From assembly GCA_032986305.1 (NCBI GenBank), contig GCA_032986305.1_3672.1: a stretch of DNA of 64,000 nucleotides; one strand, given 5' to 3'. This stretch comes from a phage. Positions 24,021-55,559 of this stretch are shown here, piece by piece. Numbering within the stretch: position 1 is the stretch's first letter; each line of letters opens with the position of its first letter. A program made the position numbers and the translations under genes. The notes below the pieces were generated by a model. That model was not told the origin of the DNA and made no database searches. It was given only the letters and a program-made list of their open reading frames with translations.

Positions 24021-24827
24021 TTAGATAAAACGCTTGAACATAGAAGGTGATGAGATTGATGGAATCACACAAGGAAGTGCTACCTCCTCTTTCTCCAGGA
24101 AATTAATTGCAGAAGCTACACAGTCAGCCCAGTCGTCTTTTCTGTTAAATGTTGATCTTTCCCCGTTGAATTTTTCAAGTTCAGTCAGAAATGCTTCCAG
24201 AGTATCAGGATGGAAACTGGATTTTACAATCCTAACCATTCCTTGTTGGGCAAGATTGGCAAAAGGTGAGAACCTTGTCAGTTTAGATTTGTTGGAAGGC
24301 ATTGGGTCTTCTTCAACCCTAAACCCTTCGGCGAGCAAGGATCTGGAGGATGTTAAGAACTCACTCTTACCTGCCTGACCGGGGTCCACAGAGAATACGA
24401 TTATACAATCATCACCATCAAACTGCGCCTGTTTCCTGATGATCACATCTCGTTCACCAGCCTTTTTACAGAACTTGCCTTCCAGACCTGTGGAATACCT
24501 CCCGTCATCCACGTTTTCAGGACAATAATCCCCTGACAGGTAATAAAAGCCGTCGCTATCTTTACTTACCTTAACACTGGCGGTAAAGTCAGGAAATTTA
24601 TTACCGGAAGTTCTGTCGGTTCCTGCCTTATCCCATGCCCTGCAAGATACTGATCCAAGGGGTACTCTATCGGCATCACGAAGGAAAGATCTTTGAAAAT
24701 AGTTTGCACCCTCAGGCTTTGCAAACCAGTTGCCATGAAGAAGCTGGGCTTTTTCAAGCTCGGGCAGACCTTCAAGAAAAGCAAGGTATTCTGGGTTGTC
24801 TCTCAAGCAGACAGGATTATCGAATCC
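24021..24827 (-). CDS. terminase large subunit, exon 2 (nuclease domain); 5' boundary approximate
   Basis: 261-aa ORF; continues the reading frame of exon 1 after removal of the intervening intron. Confidence 0.65.
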   Translation of the reverse strand, partial: GFDNPVCLRDNPEYLAFLEGLPELEKAQLLHGNWFAKPEGANYFQRSFLRDADRVPLGSVSCRAWDKAGTDRTSGNKFPDFTASVKVSKDSDGFYYLSGDYCPENVDDGRYSTGLEGKFCKKAGERDVIIRKQAQFDGDDCIIVFSVDPGQAGKSEFLTSSRSLLAEGFRVEEDPMPSNKSKLTRFSPFANLAQQGMVRIVKSSFHPDTLEAFLTELEKFNGERSTFNRKDDWADCVASAINFLEKEEVALPCVIPSISSPSMFKRFI

Positions 24828-25804
24828 TTATATTCAAAGGTGGTCGCAACACCACCTTCCGCACCTTTACGTGCTGCTGCATGTTACCATGCAGAGTAGA
24901 CTATATCACCACCCATTTCAGGGTGCTTCGCTTTTCGAGCGCCATAAGCTTGCGCCCTACTCCCTCTCGGGATAGTCGTTGAACTACATTACCAATCGTA
25001 ATTGTTTGAAATATAGGTGTAAGTCTTACGGTCTTTTATTCCTTTAACAACACTAAAACTTACTCCCCACTTCTTAGCTATTTTATTTACACACAAGACC
25101 TTATCACTAAGATCCTCGCAGATACCTATTATCTTGTGCTCACTTATCCGATTAGAGGTTGGCACTTTTCTAAAGTTAAACTCTTTAGAAATATCTGGGT
25201 ATACTGAGCCATTCTTTATACCACTTACAAGTGGTTGATTGACACCAAACATTTCACAAATGTCTTTTACCCTTGCGCCTTGCTCTAACAGCCTACATAT
25301 TTCAAGAGCAGTGGCATCATCCAGGGACCTGTATTTATTGACATAGTCCTTTTTAAGTCCCATTTCATGAGCGTGATGTGTGTTTTCCTCAGGCGTTGTC
25401 CACTCAAGGTTCCATGCGGCGTTATTCAACTTATTACCATCTAGGTGGTTTACTTGAGTTTTCACGCTGGGATTGTCATTATCAACAAAAGTCATAGCAA
25501 TCACTCTGTGAACGAGCACTTGGAACTTTTTACCGTCCTCGCACAAAGTTACCATAGCATAGCCAGTCTTTTTCTGCACATTAGGATGGAGGAATTTATT
25601 AGAATACAGACTGTAAATTCTGCCATCGTATGTAGCACAATAATGATTGTAGCCTAAAAAGCCTAAATTTTTCATTTCAAACATCTCCCTACTACAGGTT
25701 CGGAAGGGTAATTATAGCTGCTGATTGTCCGTTTAGCAATCGGATTTCCCAGCAATTAACGAAGTTATTCGACGTGCATTTCTGCACGAAGCCACTATCA
25801 TTTA
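24828..25804 (-). mobile_element. group I intron in terminase large subunit gene, carrying an HNH homing endonuclease ORF (boundaries +/- ~20 nt)
   Basis: R-like GTTCAACGACTATC (reverse of 24962-24975) and S-like GATATAGTCT (reverse of 24897-24906) core elements; 3' core nearly identical to the nrdD intron at 53500-53545; interrupts a single terminase reading frame. Confidence 0.65.
24989..25675 (-). CDS. HNH homing endonuclease (intron-encoded)
   Basis: motif ..VHRVIAMTFVDNDNPSVKTQVNHLDGNKLNNAAWNLEW.. (HNH_3-type); ORF lies inside the intron; stop 12 nt before the R element. Confidence 0.7.
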   Translation of the reverse strand: MKNLGFLGYNHYCATYDGRIYSLYSNKFLHPNVQKKTGYAMVTLCEDGKKFQVLVHRVIAMTFVDNDNPSVKTQVNHLDGNKLNNAAWNLEWTTPEENTHHAHEMGLKKDYVNKYRSLDDATALEICRLLEQGARVKDICEMFGVNQPLVSGIKNGSVYPDISKEFNFRKVPTSNRISEHKIIGICEDLSDKVLCVNKIAKKWGVSFSVVKGIKDRKTYTYISNNYDW

Positions 25805-26547
25805 ATGGTTGCGCCTATAAACGAGAATGACAACGGTCTTGGCTTGATCTCCACACCCAGTCCGTTAACCGTGGTGTATTTCTCTATCAACTCTTCTTTA
25901 GAGTCTCCCCAAATAAATTCACCGTCGCGTCGGATAAAATATCTTTTCTTACCGCATTTCTCCGGATCTGGATACCCTTCATCGTCCAACCACCATCTAA
26001 CCAGTTTGGCAAGCATGTGTTCTGAATCGGGGTTACAGCTGATAACCATTCTTGATGGATACTTTGACTGAGATCGCAGACGAGACATCAGATAGTCTAT
26101 CTGCTCCCATTCGAACTGCGTTCCCTCATCGAAGCAAACCATGGTGTACTCAAGCCCTTGATGGTTAAGCTTATCTTGTACATACTCCATGTGGCAGTAT
26201 TTTACAACAGCTCCCTTTTTGCTCCTATCCCACTTGCCAGTGTTCGGATCAAACCGTGGAAAAATGAACTTATGATCCTTCTCTCTGAACTTTGGCTTAA
26301 TGTTTTCAGGCAGATCACTATAAATAGCTACTGCTTTAGGCCATAGTCCACCCTCACCTTCCAACTGTGGGGTTGTTCTTCGGAACATAACCACAGAGCT
26401 GTGGGGGTCATCAATAATTTTAAGCGGCATCAACTGCAAGAGGAACGACTTGCCAGACCCTGCGGCACCGCCGATTACCAAAATATCTGCATCATTTTCG
26501 AGGATCATCTTCTGCTTTTCAGAACACGGTCCGTAAATCTTAGACAT
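25805..26547 (-). CDS. terminase large subunit, exon 1 (ATPase domain); 3' boundary approximate
   Basis: Walker A GGAAGSGKS near the N-terminus; ORF ends at a stop lying just inside the intron. Confidence 0.7.
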
Positions 26548-27649: not shown

Positions 27650-27726
27650 GTGGTCTCCACGGAGTGATTCGAACACTCGACCTCCTGATCCCAAATCAGG
27701 CGCTCTACCAAGCTGAGCTACGCGGA
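27650..27726 (-). tRNA. tRNA-Pro (anticodon UGG)
   Basis: hand-folded cloverleaf: acceptor CTCCGCG/CGTGGAG, T-loop TTCGAAT, anticodon loop TTTGGGA, CCA encoded. Confidence 0.8.
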
Positions 27727-27737
27727 GTATTTACTAT

Positions 27738-27812
27738 TTGGTGGCCCTGGGTGGAATTGAACCACCGTCTGGCGATTATGAGTCGCTTGCTTGAACCTTC
27801 CAGCTACAGGGC
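27738..27812 (-). tRNA. tRNA-Met (anticodon CAU; elongator or Ile-lysidine type)
   Basis: acceptor GGCCCTG/CAGGGCC, T-loop TTCAATT, anticodon loop CTCATAA, CCA encoded. Confidence 0.75.
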
Positions 27813-27813
27813 C

Positions 27814-27889
27814 TTGGTGCTGATGGCAGGACTTGAACCTGCAACCTATTGATTACAAATCAATTGCACTACCAATTGTGCTACATCAG
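27814..27889 (-). tRNA. tRNA-Thr (anticodon UGU)
   Basis: acceptor GCTGATG/CATCAGC, D-stem GCAC/GTGC, anticodon loop TTTGTAA, T-loop TTCAAGT, CCA encoded. Confidence 0.8.
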
Positions 27890-27894
27890 CAAAA

Positions 27895-27993
27895 AGGTGC
27901 TAGGCGGTGGAATCGAACCACCTATGTATTCAACGACTACCTCGTCTATTTTCAGGATTAAAAATCCTCGCCCTTGCCAAAGGGCTTACCTAG
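27895..27993 (-). tRNA. atypical tRNA-like gene, possibly tRNA-Lys (anticodon UUU) with ~30-nt extra region; may be a pseudo-tRNA
   Basis: perfect 7-bp acceptor pairing GCTAGGT/GCCTAGC, canonical T-arm GGTGG-TTCGATT-CCACC, D-stem GCCC/GGGC, 4-bp anticodon stem with loop TTTTTAA, but ~99 nt long and no CCA. Confidence 0.35.
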
Positions 27994-28091
27994 CTCAGTA
28001 TGTTGACCATGTTGCTAGTCGGCGATGACGACTGTAACATTTGATAATCCGGTTCTGCTTCCGGCTTTCGCTTAATTACAAGGTCAACAAT

Positions 28092-28182
28092 GTGGCGGAG
28101 AGTAATGGAATCGAACCATCATCGAGTCATCCTCAATGGGACGGTTTTCAAGACCGCTTGAGCACCATTGCTCCCTACCCTC
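28092..28182 (-). tRNA. tRNA-Ser (anticodon UGA), long variable arm
   Basis: acceptor GGAGGGT/ACTCTCC, anticodon loop CTTGAAA, extended variable arm, discriminator G, CCA encoded. Confidence 0.7.
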
Positions 28183-28189
28183 CTTTATA

Positions 28190-28218
28190 AATTATACTGA
28201 TAATGACACTGATTTTCG
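28190..28218 (-). promoter_or_regulatory. sigma70-like promoter upstream of tRNA-Ser
   Basis: minus strand TCGAAA-N17-TATAAT, -10 ending 7 nt before the tRNA 5' end. Confidence 0.4.
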
Positions 28219-28296
28219 AGCAGTTAGTGACTAGTATAAACGACGATAAATATCAATGCCATTATCTGTATTATTTACGCATCTAAAAATATAAAT

Positions 28297-28383
28297 TTGG
28301 TGGGGAGTGGTGGAGTCGAACCACCCGAGTCGCAATGACAATAGATTTACAGTCTACACCGCTACCTCTACGGGATAACTCCC
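28297..28383 (-). tRNA. tRNA-Tyr (anticodon GUA)
   Basis: acceptor GGGGAGT/ACTCCCC, anticodon loop CTGTAAA, long variable arm, T-loop TTCGACT, CCA encoded. Confidence 0.75.
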
Positions 28384-28387
28384 CAAT

Positions 28388-28462
28388 TTGGCACCCCGTA
28401 CTGGACTCGAACCAGTGTCAACGGCTTAGAAGGCCGCTGCTTTATCCACTAAGCTAACAGGG
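28388..28462 (-). tRNA. tRNA-Arg (anticodon UCU)
   Basis: anticodon stem-loop GCGGC-CTTCTAA-GCCGT, T-arm ACTGG-TTCGAGT-CCAGT, CCA encoded. Confidence 0.7.
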
Positions 28463-28559
28463 CACTGGGTGGCTTTCTTTTACACCTTAGCCGCCAGAAA
28501 AGGTGGGAGACCATGTTTACAATATTACACTGTTAAGCAAAGTTTGTCAAGAAAATATT

Positions 28560-51118: not shown

Positions 51119-51397
51119 ATGAGCTGTGAAAAATCTTTTTTCTTTATTATTTACGGTAAAGATAACTGCCCACATTGTGTAAGAGCAAAAGAATTTGCAG
51201 TCAGTAAAGGTCTGCCTTTTGTATATAAGACACTTGGCGAGGGTTACACAAAAGAAGAGCTTATTGAGAAGTGCAGTCCAATCGTACCCAGAACGTTGCC
51301 GCAGATCTTCTTAGAAAGCAATCTTGAAAGTGCCCATATAGGCGGTGCCGACGATTTCATCTCTTTTGTTAAGAATGGTTTTGGAGAGAAAAAGTGA
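51119..51397 (+). CDS. glutaredoxin/NrdH-like redoxin
   Basis: CPHC active-site motif (..YGKDNCPHCVRAKEF..). Confidence 0.7.
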   Translation: MSCEKSFFFIIYGKDNCPHCVRAKEFAVSKGLPFVYKTLGEGYTKEELIEKCSPIVPRTLPQIFLESNLESAHIGGADDFISFVKNGFGEKK

Positions 51398-52254
51398 AAG
51401 TTGTAAAACGGGACGGTAGAGAAGAGGTCTATAACGGAATTAAGGTGATCAAGGCGGCAGAGTCCGCCTTACTTGAGTCTGGACATACTGAAGAAGAAGC
51501 TTACCGGATCGCCTGCGCGGTTAATGAAGTTGTTGCTAACAATCTACCAACCGACCAGTGCACGATCTCTGTAAAAAATATCCATATCCTTGTTGAAGAC
51601 GCTCTTATGGATATGGGTTTAAAATGTGCAGCCAGAGAATACATCCAGTATAGGCAGACAAGAGATAATAACAGAGAGGCAGGTGGAAAACTGCTTGCAG
51701 ATATTAGTGGCTTCTTGGATCGCACTTGTGATGAATTTACAAAAGAAAACGCAAATAAGCCTACCAATCATGTACACACTCATCGTGACCTGCTTGCAGG
51801 CATCCTTAGCAAACACCTTGCATCAACACAGATCCTGCCAGACCGTGTCTCAGAAGAGCACAATAAAGGCTTCATCCATGTGCATGATCTTGACTACTTG
51901 ATCAGTCCGTTAACAAACTGTTGTTTGGTAAATTATCCAGATATGTTGGAAAACGGATTCAACATTGGTAACGCCCATGTCAGTAAGCCGAAGTCAATAG
52001 GGGTTGCAACAACAATCCTTAGCCAAATTTCTAGTGCAGTAGCTAGTGCTCAGTATGGGGGTCAGACTATGAGCCATATTGATCATTATCTGGCACAGTA
52101 TGCTGAGGCGACCTATGAGAAGAATCTTAAATTTTGCCAGGAACACTGGTTGCCAGATGCTGAGACTGTTGCAATGCAAATGACAGATAAAGACGTATTT
52201 GACAGCATGCAGACTTTGCTCTATCAAATCAATACGTTAACCTCTGTCAACGGT
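51394..52254 (+). CDS. nrdD: anaerobic ribonucleotide reductase NrdD, exon 1 (GTG start)
   Basis: N-terminal ATP-cone-like MKVVKRDGREEVYNG..; reading frame continues into exons 2 and 3 after intron removal. Confidence 0.7.
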
Positions 52255-52568
52255 TAACAAACTGGCCGTTTTAAAACTCTGCTAACCTCAGTATGAGGGG
52301 TCAGCTGATCGCTGGCTAACGGGGAACGCTAAGGCGAAAGCTATGCCAATCCCGTGACTAGCTTCACAAGGAGTGAGGCGGTTGTAACGACTAACCTTTT
52401 GGTGTAGGGATTATGGAAGATTCCGAAACGCAGAGGTCTGATTAAGAATCACACGGTGTGATTTCAGGCAAGAGATAGTCTGGCCTTGTGGAAACATAAG
52501 GGTGGGGACCGCAAACCCCTTTTATCACATTAAGTTTAGGTCTGGACACCTCAGTATTTGGTAGAATG
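52255..52568 (+). mobile_element. group I intron 1 in nrdD (ORF-less, ~314 nt)
   Basis: non-coding insertion between in-frame nrdD segments; R-like AACGACTAACC (52386-52396), S-like AGATAGTC (52473-52480); 5' exon ends in GGT, intron ends AATG; homologous to the other two introns. Confidence 0.55.
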
Positions 52569-52811
52569 ATTACCAAAAACTACTTGAAAGTCCACAAAAT
52601 GGGTCTTGGTGAAGAATGTATCACACCTGTGTTCCCTAAAGTGCTGTTCTTCCTAGAAGAGGGTGTCAACATGAACCCTGGAGATCCTAACTATGATTTG
52701 AAACGTTTAGCTCTGGAATGCTCTGCAGAGCGGATTTATCCTGACTTTGTTTCTGTTCCACTAAATCGTAAAGTGACAGGCTCGACAGATGGCAAAGTAA
52801 CGAGCATGGGT
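52569..52811 (+). CDS. nrdD: NrdD exon 2
   Basis: encodes ..VFPKVLFFLEEGVNMNPGDPNYDLKRLALECSAERIYPDF.. matching recalled class III RNR sequence; ends in GGT before intron 2. Confidence 0.6.
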
Positions 52812-53573
52812 AAACTATAACTGCTCATGTAAAATCTATCTAAACGGGGAAACTCCAGAACGGACAATCCCGTGCTAAACGTAACAGAACTCCTGACCAA
52901 GAGGAGTCCTGAAATGAGAAAACAAATTCGTGATTTTGAAGGTTATGAAATTGACGAGATGGGCAATGTTTATTGCACCCGCTACGAAAATGAAAGAATT
53001 ATTCATTCGTGGGAAGAGATAAACACAGGTTACCGTCTTGTTAGGATACGCAAGAACAAAAAGACTGTTTGCCTAAGGGTTCACAGACTTGTTGCTGAAG
53101 CGTTCTTACCAAATCCAGACAATTTACCCTATGTTAAGCACAAAGGGGACAACAGGAAAGATAACAGTGTATACAACCTTGAGTGGGGAGCTTGCCCAGA
53201 CAATACGCAAGAAGGATACAACAACAACTGTTATGCTTTTTACACAAGATGCCACGGTGTGAAAGCCACCAACAAATTAACTGGTGAGGTTTTCCACTTT
53301 AAAAGTCTGAGATGTTGTGCTGATGTTTTAGGAGTGGATAGAAAAAGAATATCTGCTATCCTGAAACGTGGTGCGCCTAATAACTATGATTACGAGTTCT
53401 GTTACGAAATGCCTAACGACTAACCGTGATGAATGTAGCGGTGTAGGGTGTAAGCCGATGACACTCGAAATGGTAGACACACTAAGTGTGAAGATATAGT
53501 CTGATCTGCATGGGAACATGCAGCAGCACGTAAAGGTGCGGGGGTGGACTTGCGAACCACCCTGAACATAATG
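52812..53573 (+). mobile_element. group I intron 2 in nrdD, carrying an HNH homing endonuclease ORF
   Basis: R-like AACGACTAACC (53415-53425), S-like AAGATATAGTC (53491-53501); 3' core near-identical to terminase intron; exons rejoin as ..TSMG|CRSFL.. Confidence 0.65.
52915..53423 (+). CDS. HNH homing endonuclease (intron-encoded)
   Basis: GAGGAG RBS; motif ..RVHRLVAEAFLPNPDNLPYVKHKGDNRKDNSVYNLEW..; stop codon lies inside the intron R element. Confidence 0.7.
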
Positions 53574-54536
53574 TGTAGAAGTTTCTTATCGAAATATAGC
53601 GACCCTGTAACAGGCGAGGAGAAATACCTTGGCAGATTTAACTTAGGCGTTGTTAGCCTTAACCTGCCAATGATTGCGGCAAAAGCCAAGACGGAAGGTG
53701 TTGATTTCTTTGCAGTTCTTGACGAATACTTGGATCTTGCATACGAGGCTCACCTTGTAAGGGTTAATCGTCTAAAAGGAACAAAGGCAGGGCAGAACCC
53801 CATCATGTGGTGTGAAGGCGCTCTTGCTCGCCTGGATCCTGAAGAGAGTGTTGATAAACTCTTCTATGACGGGTACGCTTCCATCAGTATTGGGTATATT
53901 GGTGTGTATGAAACCTGTCAGATTTTGGGTAGAGAGGGTGACAAGGCTTTAGCTCTTGGAATCCTTCAGCACATGAGAGATGCTTGTGAGCGATACAAGA
54001 AGGAAAGTAGACTAGCGTTTAGCTTGTACGGCACTCCTTCTGAGAGTCTATGCTATAAAGCTGCAACCTGTCTGGATCGTGAATATCCGGAAGTGTTGAA
54101 GCACGAGCATGAATATCTCACCAACAGTTTCCATCAGCCAGTATGGATAAATAGCTCTCCTTTTGATAAGTGGGAGTATGAGGAAGGTTTTGCTATGATC
54201 TCCTCTGGTGGCAACATCGGATACGTAGAAACACCTAACCTGAAAAACAACCTGGATGCTTTAGAGGCTCTTGTTGACTTCGGGTATAAACATATTATGT
54301 ACTTCGGTATAAACCAGCCTGTTGACCAATGCTTCAAGTGCGGTTTCCAGGGAGAATTTAAAGCCTCTCCAAGAGGTTTTATATGCCCTTGTTGTGGAAA
54401 CCATGAGGAGGGAACGATCAGTGTAATTAGACGTGTGTCTGGATACCTTTCCAGTCCTAACTCCCGTCCTTACAATAAAGGTAAGCAAGCGGAAGTTATA
54501 GAACGGGTTAAGCACTATGGAAGTTGTAGTTGCTGA
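53574..54536 (+). CDS. nrdD: NrdD exon 3 (glycyl-radical C-terminal part)
   Basis: CRSFL..GRFNLGVVSLNLPMIA, C-terminal Cys cluster CFKCG..CPCCG and glycyl-radical-like RRVSGYL. Confidence 0.7.
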   Translation, partial: CRSFLSKYSDPVTGEEKYLGRFNLGVVSLNLPMIAAKAKTEGVDFFAVLDEYLDLAYEAHLVRVNRLKGTKAGQNPIMWCEGALARLDPEESVDKLFYDGYASISIGYIGVYETCQILGREGDKALALGILQHMRDACERYKKESRLAFSLYGTPSESLCYKAATCLDREYPEVLKHEHEYLTNSFHQPVWINSSPFDKWEYEEGFAMISSGGNIGYVETPNLKNNLDALEALVDFGYKHIMYFGINQPVDQCFKCGFQGEFKASPRGFICPCCGNHEEGTISVIRRVSGYLSSPNSRPYNKGKQAEVIERVKHYGSCSC

Positions 54537-54539
54537 TAC

Positions 54540-54569
54540 TTGACAGAAGCCACAAGGATGTGGCATACT
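54540..54569 (+). promoter_or_regulatory. sigma70-like promoter
   Basis: TTGACA-N18-CATACT. Confidence 0.4.
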
Positions 54570-54602
54570 TGGCTAATCTATGAGAACCAAGAGGGATCAA
54601 AG

Positions 54603-55559
54603 ATGCCTAGAGGAAAACAACTTACAACTGAAGAATTTACAAAAAGAGCTAGAGAAGTACATGGCGATAAATATGACTATTCAAAAACCGTATATAAAAC
54701 TGCTAAAAGTAAGGTTGTAATTGTATGCCCTGTTCATGGTGAGTTTACGCAGATCGCTGGACATCATATCCTTGACGGTAGTGGGTGTCCTAAGTGTGGT
54801 AGAGTGCCAGTAGGCAATAAGCTTAGAAACGATTCTAGTGATATTATCAAAAAATTTGTAAAAATCCACGGTGACACCTATGATTATTCTAAGGTTGAAT
54901 ATGTTAACTATAAAACTCCTGTAAAAATTGTATGCCCTGAGCACGGAGTGTTCTTGCAATCCCCATCTAACCATTTGAAAGGCCAAGGGTGCCCTGAGTG
55001 TAGTAAACTCATTAGCGCAGCAAAAAGGAATAAAGGCCCTGAATTCATAGAAAGAGCCAAAGAAATCCATGGCGATAAATATGACTACTCTTTTGTAGAT
55101 TATATGACTTGCGAAGATAAGGTAGAGATAATCTGCAACACTTGTGGAAATCACTTCACCCAGACACCTTCTTGCCACCTGTCTGGTCGTGGATGCCCTA
55201 AATGTGCCAAAAACGGTTTCTTATCTCACAACTATGGGAAGCTTTACCTCATGGTTGATAACTTAGAAGCGCCAACACTTATGAAGATTGGTGTGAGCGT
55301 CAATGTAGAAGCGAGGAAGGGAAGGATATTAAGAGCATCCAAGAAGGCTGGTGCAGGTATTTATGATCTCCACATAGTAAAAACATGGGGCGGATCGACT
55401 GAAAACATGCTGAGTGTAGAAAAATCTGTGCATGAAGCCTTCAATAAGTATAAAATAAACTTCTCTAAAGTATTTAGTGGAAGCACTGAATTCTTTCACT
55501 ACAGACCTGAAGTGTTTAGCATAGTGGAAGCAGTATACAAAGAGATCTGTGGTAAATGA
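54603..55559 (+). CDS. free-standing homing-endonuclease-like protein: three zinc-finger repeats plus C-terminal T5orf172/GIY-YIG-related domain (tentative)
   Basis: three repeats of HGDKYDYS..C(P)..HG.F..H..G.GCP.C; C-terminal ..GKLYLMVDN..KIGVS..HIV..; between nrdD and nrdG. Confidence 0.45.
   Translation: MPRGKQLTTEEFTKRAREVHGDKYDYSKTVYKTAKSKVVIVCPVHGEFTQIAGHHILDGSGCPKCGRVPVGNKLRNDSSDIIKKFVKIHGDTYDYSKVEYVNYKTPVKIVCPEHGVFLQSPSNHLKGQGCPECSKLISAAKRNKGPEFIERAKEIHGDKYDYSFVDYMTCEDKVEIICNTCGNHFTQTPSCHLSGRGCPKCAKNGFLSHNYGKLYLMVDNLEAPTLMKIGVSVNVEARKGRILRASKKAGAGIYDLHIVKTWGGSTENMLSVEKSVHEAFNKYKINFSKVFSGSTEFFHYRPEVFSIVEAVYKEICGK

Follow-up and report, generated by a model that had tools for sequence, protein, structure and literature searches.

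Phage T4 reportedly carries three group I introns, in td, nrdB and nrdD (sunY), all of subgroup IA2, and these are said to recombine spontaneously with one another at the core sequences they share. Closer to the DNA considered here is phage rV5, whose terL gene has been described as containing introns (Kropinski et al. 2013, Virol J 10:76, PMC3606486), in a paper that does not discuss the nrdD introns or the shared block treated below. The rV5 terL introns are thus in the literature already, and the shared block is a known, ordinary feature. The window (the whole stretch analysed, 64,000 nucleotides) is 99% identical to the Vequintavirus phages ECML-10 and rV5, and this similarity marks its source as an E. 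coli phage of the rV5-like type (Vequintavirus). Three group I introns lie in it, one in terL and two in nrdD. The terL intron is the same as one in rV5, at the same site and with the same HNH endonuclease (gp065/gp066, 98.8% DNA identity), but an extra, upstream, ORF-less terL intron of rV5 is absent from the window.

Introns in terL and nrdD

The terL gene lies on the minus strand, with exon 1 at 25805..26547 and exon 2 at 24021..24825, as delimited by the intronless terL of FV3, the list of open reading frames and splicing in silico. The three exons of nrdD, on the plus strand (51394..52254, 52512..52811 and 53574..54536), were delimited in the same manner by comparison with relatives. Exact excision of the introns in silico gives back an intact host gene in both cases: a TerL of 515 aa, whose alignment with the FV3 protein (516 positions, stop counted) has 515 matches, and a NrdD of 707 aa, free of internal stops. 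For annotation, terL and nrdD are best treated as single genes split by introns that are predicted to be self-splicing; two of the introns contain homing endonuclease genes (HEGs).

The terL intron (979 nt, 24826..25804, minus strand; from alignment to FV3 terL) starts with UAAAUGAUAGUGG after exon sequence ending in ACCAU and itself ends in UGAAUAUAAGG, with a terminal G. Intron 2 of nrdD (nrdD-I2; 762 nt, 52812..53573, plus strand), bounded by comparison with phage AlexBoehm, which is without it, starts with AAACUAUAACUGCUCAUG after CAUGGGU and ends in UGAACAUAAUG. The P1 pairings and termini were read from the sequence at boundaries set by intronless homologs. In terL, exon sequence CCAU/UA (the slash marking the splice site) pairs with UAGUGG, and in nrdD-I2, CAUGGGU/ pairs with GCUCAUG, both with U opposite G; the introns terminate in AAGG and AAUG, respectively. 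Intron 1 of nrdD (nrdD-I1; 257 nt, 52255..52511, plus strand; bounded by comparison with phiWec191, which is without it) is an ORF-less group I intron in which ACGGU/ pairs with GCCGU and whose terminus is ACCG. Its P9 is CCUUGUG GAAA CAUAAGG, the form of P9.1 called type A below is absent, and the intron is a third, more diverged member of the set. In FFH2, the same site holds an intron with a HEG.

A scan of the whole window against Rfam at the gathering threshold returned tRNAs only; the introns surface with an E-value threshold only. In regional searches the three gave E values of 5e-7 to 5e-5 with model RF00028 (gathering score 50). The terL intron and nrdD-I2 each scored 35.3 bits, both falling below the gathering score because the match is interrupted by an endonuclease ORF, and nrdD-I1 scored 29.2 bits. 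The terL intron also exists in ORF-less versions. One such ortholog, in phage RudolfGeigy, has a 5' ribozyme segment 98% identical to that of the terL intron and reaches 95.6 bits, against 84 bits for the other terL intron of the rV5 type.

The ORFs of the two larger introns lie in the loop of P6a. That of terL (24989..25675, minus strand) encodes 228 aa from the ATG at 25675; a further in-frame ATG lies upstream, at 25684. The protein matches Pfam HNH_3 with 28.0 bits (cutoff 24.8), together with sub-threshold matches to helix-turn-helix (HTH) domains, and its ortholog in rV5 is annotated as HNH endonuclease gp066. The ORF of nrdD-I2 (52914..53423, plus strand; 169 aa, stop codon 53421-53423) crosses P6a' and J6/7 at its 3' end and runs into the 5' strand of P7. 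It scores 19.7 bits with HNH_3 (cutoff 24.8) and 20.2 bits with an I-HmuI NUMOD-like model (cutoff 27), its motif VHRLVAEAF..NLEW aligns to the terL-intron HEG, and it is 100% identical to the "endonuclease" of phiWec191, the ortholog in phage VEcB being 91% identical. The two proteins share 29% identity over 94 aa and differ in their C-terminal domains. Both are probably HNH-type homing endonucleases, with cleavage predicted.

The shared block in the 3' domain

The pattern TGCATGGKAACATGCAGCAGCACGTAAAGGTGCGG has two matches in the window, at 24859-24893 (minus strand) and 53507-53541 (plus strand). The one difference between these 35-mers, T versus G, falls at position 2 of a GNRA tetraloop, and the similarity runs on in the 5' direction to 49 nt (GATATAGTCT..GGTGCGG), covering 24859..24907 (minus) in the terL intron and 53493..53541 (plus) in nrdD-I2, with 46 of 49 nucleotides identical. 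About 28.6 kb separates the copies, which point in opposite directions. A sequence-only reading of this DNA had placed a near-identical segment of about 45 nt in the terL and nrdD introns on opposite strands, within 24840-24910 and about 53502-53545. The segment is real, lies in those introns and on those strands, and is included in those intervals; pairwise alignment of the two introns extends the near-identity to the full 49 nt. The reading was right also about matching spurious translations: the peptide APLRAAAC is found in antisense ORFs at 24693-24899 (plus) and 53420-53689 (minus), both of which are artefacts. A chance or low-complexity match is excluded, as the 35-mer has no match in 100 dinucleotide-preserving shuffles (up to three mismatches tolerated), the block is neither low-complexity nor repetitive, and its copies occupy homologous positions in two ribozymes.

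In the folded model, the block spans J8/7, the P7 3' strand, P9 (with its GNRA loop) and P9.1 of a T4-like IA2 ribozyme. The terL copy, read on the minus strand, comprises J8/7 and the P7 3' strand (GAUAUAGUC, 24899-24907), a P9 of 7 bp with loop GUAA (24877-24894) and the P9.1 hairpin GCAC GUAAAG GUGC (24861-24874). Beyond the block comes the P9.2 hairpin, AAGGUGGU GUUGCG ACCACCUU (24837-24858), which with the 3' tail occupies 24826..24858. Upstream lie P8 (24910-24925), P3' (AGCGAAG, 24926-24932, whose partner is CUUCGUU at 25758-25764), P7.2 (GGGCGC..GCGCUC, 24937-24957) and P7.1 (UCCC GAGA GGGA, 24961-24972). Their equivalents in nrdD-I2 fall within 53423-53490 on the plus strand, followed by J8/7 and the P7 3' strand (53493-53501), P9 with loop GGAA (53506-53523), P9.1 (53526-53539) and, at 53542..53573, the P9.2 hairpin GGGUGG ACUUGCGAA CCACCC with the 3' tail. 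Rfam's own alignment agrees: GAUAUAGUCU..CUGCAUGGUAACAUGCAG falls on the last 33 or so consensus positions of RF00028, and in the alignment of the RudolfGeigy ortholog the first 31 nt of the block fall on the model's J8/7-P7-P9 positions. In both introns, P7.1 and P7.2 separate P7 from P3', and the 3' domain is made up of P9, P9.1 and P9.2, an arrangement that we take, from comparison with the T4 introns and from the Michel-Westhof classification, to mark subgroup IA2.

The predicted P9 (7 bp and a 4-nt GNRA loop), P9.1, P9.2 and tail were found in 12 of 12 family members compared, and a P9.1 of 4 bp with a 6-nt loop in 10 of the 12. Among 35 introns, 9 of 11 pairs in P9 and P9.1 show compensatory changes; since this set was pre-filtered for pairing ability, pairing is 100% by construction, and the counts of compensatory changes alone are informative. 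P9.2 was excluded from the pair counts, its register in the MAFFT alignment being structurally inconsistent. A role for the block as promoter, terminator or endonuclease target is excluded by its position on ribozyme helices with covariation, downstream of the endonuclease ORFs.

In the pre-mRNA, then, the block would form J8/7, the P7 3' strand, P9 and P9.1, with P9.2 and the terminal G coming next. UAGUC would pair with an upstream GACUA to make P7, the guanosine-binding helix; P9 would stand as a 7-bp hairpin under its GNRA tetraloop, and P9.1 would have a stem of 4 bp and a 6-nt loop. These elements, together with P9.2 and the terminal G, would be required for the predicted self-splicing that yields intact TerL and NrdD reading frames. 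We infer that both introns do self-splice and that L9 and P9.1 have tertiary roles.

Constraint, exchange and the age of the block

Whole-intron MAFFT alignments were swamped by the non-homologous endonuclease ORFs, leaving the 5' halves misaligned, and so partitioned, hand-anchored alignments were used. By these, the ribozymes of terL and nrdD-I2 are 94% identical in the block but 57% in the 5' half, 65% in P7-P8 and 74% from P9.2 to the 3' end, where the stem sequences are different. P2 is present in the terL intron and absent from nrdD-I2, their P3-P6 cores differ in type, and compensatory changes distinguish them in P3, P4/P6, P7.2, P8 and P9.2. From recent paralogs one would expect high identity across the whole element, ribozyme and HEG; what is found is 57-74% for the ribozyme outside the block and 29% over 94 aa for the HEG. 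Closer relatives occupy the same sites in other genera: the HEG of the terL intron has same-site counterparts 82% identical in Avunavirus and 62% in Phapecoctavirus, and that of nrdD-I2 has one 91% identical in Justusliebigvirus.

The sequence-only reading had seen in the block the recent intragenomic spread of one intron/endonuclease family. One family it is, in the broad sense that both are group I introns of a T4-like IA2 type with HNH-type HEGs; the recent spread is not borne out. Two near-identical copies of 35-49 nt in one genome, and HNH-type ORFs in the same P6a loop of both introns, are what a recent transposition of an intron/endonuclease unit between terL and nrdD would leave behind, but the divergence of ribozymes and HEGs, the same-site orthologs of other genera (62-91% HEG identity), the terL introns that have no ORF, the conservation of the block well beyond this genome and the low proportion of block-bearing phage records with two matching places (7 of 72) make such an event exceedingly improbable. 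The practical caution is that near-identity over 45-50 nt between phage introns is to be expected from ribozyme constraint and gives no date for a transposition.

The block is, in our judgment, quite likely the 3' part of the ribozyme in two T4-type IA2 introns that are homologous but parted long ago, its near-identity owed to constraint and not to recency. Nested purifying selection would account for it. J8/7-P7 would be held as in essentially all group I introns, and the CUGCAUG-GNRA-CAUGCAG P9 as throughout the T4-like family of phage introns. In P9.1, GCAC-GUAAAG-GUGC would be a variant whose sequence is conserved within a widespread sub-clade that includes the 3' domains of both introns. 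Over J8/7-P9, phages of Yersinia, Lactococcus, Bacillus, Salmonella and Xanthomonas show 88-95% identity and T4 introns about 90%, and the P9.1 18-mer occurs also in introns of Vibrio phages and in IMG/VR contigs. Exact copies of the 18-mer are present in at least 15 metagenomic introns, with differing P8, P9 and P9.2 stems; these were the 15 of 120 metagenome P9.1 loci listed that have an upstream group I core (the others being counted as chance or unrelated), and as they hold P9.1 by construction they speak to diversity of context, not to frequency. One metagenome locus carries the identical 49-mer between unrelated flanks. Exact scans of IMG/VR with the P9.1 18- to 25-mer gave 1-4 loci; two loci, L010 (inside a coding sequence) and L011, are without an upstream group I core and are likely chance matches.

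Perhaps, instead, P9-P9.1 (possibly P8 to P9.1) was copied between the two introns, or from a third intron, by domain shuffling or short-patch gene conversion. The introns would have recombined by homology within J8/7-P7, which is conserved, either while in one genome or when two phages infected the same cell, and the block would be younger than the rest of either intron. Two forms of P9.1 recur, type A (CAGCAC-GUAAAG-GUGCGG) and type B (CAGUUC-AUAAGA-GAACG), and the donor in the latter case would be a type A intron. The pattern of identity is mosaic. The terL block is 94% identical to that of nrdD-I2 but 71% to that of the same-site ortholog in phage nepoznato, while upstream the figures are 65% and 78%. 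In three-way comparison, informative sites in P7-P3' favor joining terL with the same-site Phapecoctavirus ortholog by 13:2, and those in P9-P9.1 favor terL with nrdD-I2 by 12:1 (Fisher p about 7e-5, stem sites being non-independent). The P9.1 of nepoznato, CAGUUCAUAAGAGAACG, recurs without change in the T4 nrdB intron and in an intron of a Klebsiella Mydovirus, so that discrete P9.1 cassettes are found on ribozymes that otherwise differ. Among the matches listed, 2 of 120 distinct IMG/VR introns with canonical P9 have the GCAC/GUGC stem and none of the 120 has the GUAAAG loop. Since type A is therefore not the family default, two type A introns in one genome exceed a random draw. Type A is moreover mostly joined to an nrdB-like 5' core, and the core of nrdD-I2 is td-like, an observation given little weight as the classes come from crude regular expressions that leave about half unclassified. 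Exchange at shared core sequences has reportedly been seen experimentally among the T4 introns.

Against this, the Avunavirus terL intron keeps the P9 and P9.1 stems, the latter GCAC/GUGC, with a different L9.1 loop, so type A is evidently old in the terL lineage and nepoznato the exception; an exchange in nepoznato would explain the mosaic without any in this genome. In many independent introns whose P9 and P9.2 differ, identity starts and stops exactly at the edges of the P9.1 hairpin, as selection on an element predicts and random crossover points do not. Type A is already present in the phi92-like orthologs of nrdD-I2, and any exchange must therefore be older than their spread among genera; the differences remaining within the block are too few for dating. 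Copying of the block into either intron seems on balance unlikely, though far less so than recent transposition. It is likewise doubtful that P9.1 consists of a few sequence-invariant cassettes swapped among diverged ribozymes by short-patch recombination, the terL/nrdD identity being the footprint of one swap. If so, the 3' domains of ribozymes are modular and are shuffled horizontally among natural phage introns, as laboratory crosses of T4 suggested. The cassette-like invariance of P9.1 could point either to such shuffling or to an uncharacterised tertiary contact. Under constraint, the reading favored here, it is presumably selection and not exchange that holds P9.1 identical. The connection between the two 3' domains may nonetheless be specific but old, and some exchange of domains between introns in the history of the family is plausible.

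Comparison with phi92-like phages and T4

A counterpart of nrdD-I2 is found in phi92-like phages (Justusliebigvirus VEcB; Phapecoctavirus), at the same nrdD site and between identical flanking exon bases. Identity is 84% for the 3' half of the ribozyme, 94% for the block and 91% for the HEG. These phages belong to a different subfamily and have GUGA as L9 and, in VEcB, GUAAUG as L9.1.

As in T4, a single genome holds several homologous introns with long near-identical stretches of core (splicing being predicted here), arranged in the order P7, P7.1, P7.2, P3', P8, P7', P9, P9.1, P9.2 and with an endonuclease ORF carried as a loop on a peripheral helix. The P9 stem, CUGCAUG/CAUGCAG under a GNRA loop, is identical in the T4 nrdB and nrdD (sunY) introns, as is the J8/7-P7 sequence GAUAUAGUC. 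The P3-P6 core of the terL intron resembles that of T4 nrdB, and the core of nrdD-I2 those of sunY and td. The differences lie elsewhere. The host phage is a Vequintavirus and the insertion sites are others: the T4 nrdD intron interrupts at about aa 277 in the numbering of the NrdD described here, where the introns follow aa 287 and aa 387. The P9.1 of T4 nrdB is type B (GUUC AUAAGA GAAC), whereas those of terL and nrdD-I2 are type A. The T4 sunY ORF (I-TevII, according to reviews) is in the 3' domain, whereas the HEGs of the window are in P6a, and both are HNH-type. Recombination among the T4 introns offers a mechanism for exchanging domains by way of conserved core blocks, and in this it bears on the mosaic pattern of P9.1. 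Here, however, because the copies are inverted and about 28.6 kb apart, crossing over between the two would flip the intervening segment and break both genes.

The shared block and its place in the ribozyme

A sequence of 35 nucleotides that the sequence-only reading had singled out occurs twice in the window, at 24859-24893 (minus strand) and 53507-53541 (plus strand), with one mismatch between the copies; 100 shuffles yielded no match to it with three mismatches permitted. Followed further 5' along the coding strand of each host gene, the similarity grows to a block of 49 nucleotides, identical at 46 of them: GATATAGTCT(AC)TCTGCATGG(T)AACATGCAGCAGCACGTAAAGGTGCGG in the intron of terL (24859-24907, minus strand) and GATATAGTCT(GA)TCTGCATGG(G)AACATGCAGCAGCACGTAAAGGTGCGG in the second intron of nrdD, nrdD-I2 (53493-53541, plus strand). 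The reading was therefore right that a near-identical segment lies on opposite strands in the two introns, and right that it gives rise to matching spurious translations; the "PLRAAAC" peptides come from spurious antisense ORFs that cross the block. A search of the rest of the window for more copies, which the reading had proposed as a check, found no third one.

The block corresponds to defined parts of a group I ribozyme. Positions 1 to 9 comprise J8/7 and the 3' strand of P7, and the UAGUC of the block pairs with GACUA at 24973-24977 in the terL intron and at 53418-53422 in nrdD-I2. Positions 14 to 31 form P9, a stem of 7 bp (CUGCAUG/CAUGCAG) with a GNRA tetraloop (GUAA in the terL intron, GGAA in nrdD-I2), and the sole mismatch within the 35 nucleotides is the N of GNRA. 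Positions 34 to 47 form P9.1, a 4-bp GCAC/GUGC stem with the loop GUAAAG, called type A here. The Rfam alignment places positions 1 to 31 on the last consensus positions of the group I intron model RF00028. P9, P9.1, P9.2, and a GAACAUAAxG-like tail are predicted in the folds of all 12 relatives considered, and P9.1 has a 4-bp stem and a 6-nt loop in 10 of these 12. Compensatory double changes were found at 9 of 11 P9/P9.1 pairs over 35 introns, a set pre-filtered for pairing and thus informative only in its covariation counts.

From established group I biology, one may picture the block at work in the pre-mRNA, where the P1-P6 and P7-P9.2 parts would fold around a looped-out endonuclease ORF. 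The block would contribute J8/7 along with one of the two strands of P7, where guanosine binds; the GNRA loop of P9 would dock on P5, and P9.1 and P9.2 would stabilize the core and place the terminal G, with the exons joined through two transesterifications. The HNH endonucleases would cut intronless terL or nrdD alleles of co-infecting phages, leading to homing.

The host genes and their introns

The window belongs to an rV5-like myovirus of E. coli (Vequintavirus), and its terL region is 99% identical to those of phages ECML-10 and rV5. On the minus strand, terL consists of exons at 25805-26547 and 24021-24825, separated by an intron of 979 nt (24826-25804) as judged by alignment to phage FV3, whose terL is intronless; the joined exons encode a 515-aa protein, with 515 of 516 positions matching FV3 TerL. 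On the plus strand, nrdD carries a first intron with no ORF (nrdD-I1; 52255-52511, 257 nt), delimited by phage phiWec191, which has no insertion at this site (in phage FFH2 it holds an intron with an endonuclease), and the second, nrdD-I2 (52812-53573, 762 nt), delimited by phage AlexBoehm, which lacks that one. Joined, the exons give an uninterrupted NrdD of 707 aa. All of these introns are patchily present and absent among Vequintavirus genomes, as expected for mobile introns.

The matches to RF00028 (35.3 bits for the terL intron, 35.3 for nrdD-I2, and 29.2 for nrdD-I1) have significant E-values but lie below the gathering score of 50, and the alignments of the first two are broken by their large ORFs; the ORF-less form of the terL intron, carried by phage RudolfGeigy, scores 95.6 bits. 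As read from each intron, the upstream exon ends in a U that faces a G in P1 (CCAU|UA with UAGUGG in terL, CAUGGGU| with GCUCAUG in nrdD-I2), and the terminal base is G. The 3' half runs in the order P7, P7.1, P7.2, P3', P8, J8/7, P7', P9, P9.1, P9.2, a layout that, by comparison with T4 sequences and in part by the group I classification, is that of the T4 td/nrdB/sunY type, which we take to be subgroup IA2. Both ORFs lie in the P6a loop. That of the terL intron (24989-25675, minus strand) passes Pfam HNH_3, and that of nrdD-I2 (52914-53423, plus strand) has HNH_3 and I-HmuI-NUMOD-like matches, both sub-threshold. The end of the latter (53405-53423) crosses P6a' and J6/7 and enters the 5' strand of P7, its stop codon falling within ACGACUAA, so the coding sequence overlaps the ribozyme core.

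Several features of the surroundings deserve mention. An extra upstream terL intron, missing from exon 1 in the window, is present in rV5, RudolfGeigy, and several relatives; it has no ORF in rV5, and in phages nomo and JES2013 it harbors one that resembles endonuclease VII. The window's own terL intron occurs with or without the HNH ORF in different Vequintavirus genomes. The last hairpin of nrdD-I1 (GGGG ACCG|CAAA CCCC) straddles the 3' splice site. Exon 3 of nrdD begins with TGTAGAAGTTTCTTATCGAAATATAGC (53574-53600), as against TGCCGGAGTTTTCTTAGCAAATACAGT in the intronless AlexBoehm allele (1519-1545 of comparison locus L003), with many synonymous differences over these 27 nt; its first ten, TGTAGAAGTT, are identical in Justusliebigvirus VEcB. 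Clustered just 3' of the intron-2 site, the differences fit co-conversion and look like a co-conversion tract, or perhaps like cleavage-resistance changes travelling with the intron. Directly after nrdD and before nrdG is an ORF of 339 aa (54540-55559, plus strand) with DUF723, treble-clef zinc-finger repeats, and a C-terminal T5orf172/MUG113 domain, which appears to be a free-standing gene of the homing-endonuclease kind lodged inside the nrd operon. About 1 kb upstream of terL, past two small Rz-like spanin ORFs, lies a tRNA gene cluster (27654-28463, minus strand), five of whose members reach the Rfam tRNA gathering score, along with weaker tRNA-like matches. Outside the window, Vequintavirus DNA polymerase genes (AlexBoehm 69783-69834, FV3 125939-125990) include a stretch that resembles the terL intron in its P3-P6 core, which suggests that these genomes have another group I intron elsewhere. 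Many GenBank MG0656xx "Campylobacter phage" records (UNVERIFIED, with C. jejuni given as host) hardly differ from rV5-like coliphages and carry a Vequintavirus classification; their names or hosts are probably wrong.

The age of the block and the P9.1 hairpin

The sequence-only reading had taken the likeness of the two copies as a sign of recent spread within the genome. The remainder of the introns speaks against this. Identity between the terL intron and nrdD-I2, 94% in the block, is 57% over the 5' half (P1-P6), 65% from P7 to P8, and 74% from P9.2 to the end, where the stem sequences are unlike. A P2 hairpin is present in the terL intron and absent from nrdD-I2, and the two differ in the type of their P3-P6 core, with UUAAUUGCUGGGAAAUCC..GACAAUCAGCAGC in the terL intron, like T4 nrdB, and AUCUAUCUAAACGGGGAA..GACAAUCCCGUGC in nrdD-I2, like T4 sunY. 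P7.2 has undergone compensatory replacement (GGGCGC/GCGCUC in terL, GGGUGU/ACACUC in nrdD-I2), as has P8. The two endonucleases are 29% identical over 94 residues and differ in their C-terminal domains. Moreover, each unit of intron and endonuclease finds much closer counterparts at its own insertion site in other genera: for terL, Avunavirus phage 18-1-2 (82% in the endonuclease) and Phapecoctavirus nepoznato (62%), and for nrdD-I2, Justusliebigvirus VEcB (91% in the endonuclease, 84% in the ribozyme). We therefore reject a recent copy. Across the phage-genome collection, the P9-P9.1 block occurs in 72 records, only 7 of which have two matching places.

The block is conserved well beyond this genome. 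The T4 nrdB and nrdD introns share its J8/7-P7 and P9 stem, and for introns from phages of Yersinia, Lactococcus, Bacillus, Salmonella, and Xanthomonas the identity over the stretch from J8/7 to P9 is 88-95%. The exact 18-mer containing P9.1 is found in an intron adjoining the capsid gene of Vibrio phage 1.232.O, in Vibrio phage HNL01, in IMG/VR contigs L006 and L009, and in at least 15 metagenomic introns that carry quite dissimilar P8, P9, and P9.2 helices. An environmental intron on the minus strand of metagenome contig Ga0136596_1036289 (L058; some 60 nt near position 846 once the locus is reverse-complemented) matches the nrdD-I2 block at 49 of 49 nucleotides, and its P8, P9.2, and exon are unrelated to those of nrdD-I2. 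That the limits of identity are repeatedly the limits of the P9.1 hairpin points to selection on P9.1.

Among the matches listed, 120 distinct IMG/VR introns selected only for a canonical P9 include 2 with the type A stem and 14 with an invariant second type, CAGUUCAUAAGAGAACG, the commonest P9.1 in this set; the others are diverse. The second type is exact in T4 nrdB, in the nepoznato terL intron (1285-1335 of locus L018), and in a Klebsiella Mydovirus intron (L023).

In a three-way comparison, the terL intron goes with its nepoznato ortholog over P7-P3' (13:2 informative sites) and with nrdD-I2 in P9-P9.1 (12:1; Fisher p ~7e-5, paired sites being non-independent). This mosaic points to at least one replacement of the 3' domain as the terL intron evolved. 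The same sites might be read as an exchange between the two Vequintavirus introns, but we think that unlikely, as the GCAC/GUGC stem recurs in the terL intron of Avunavirus (with the loop GUAGUG) and type A is already there in phi92-like nrdD introns. On the latter two observations, the simplest reading is that nepoznato would be the replaced lineage and type A old in both the terL and nrdD lineages.

Comparison with known introns

A single phage with several homologous group I introns that share near-identical core blocks is the classic situation of T4, reportedly described by Shub et al. in 1988, a paper cited in PMC2988022 (reference B71). Several GenBank records annotate the nrdD introns through split or joined genes, and rV5 terL is entered as a joined CDS; its introns, among them the endonuclease-bearing one of the window, have already been published (PMC3606486, "Introns in terminase"). 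Given this precedent and these records, the block is a feature of a known kind, correctly sighted from the sequence but over-interpreted as to its age. The T4 nrdD (sunY) intron lies at about residue 277 in the numbering of the window's NrdD, 10 codons upstream of nrdD-I1 (after residue 287) and distant from nrdD-I2 (after 387), yet it is nrdD-I2 that its 5' core and guide sequence GCUCAUG closely resemble. There are thus three insertion sites in nrdD, occupied by related introns.
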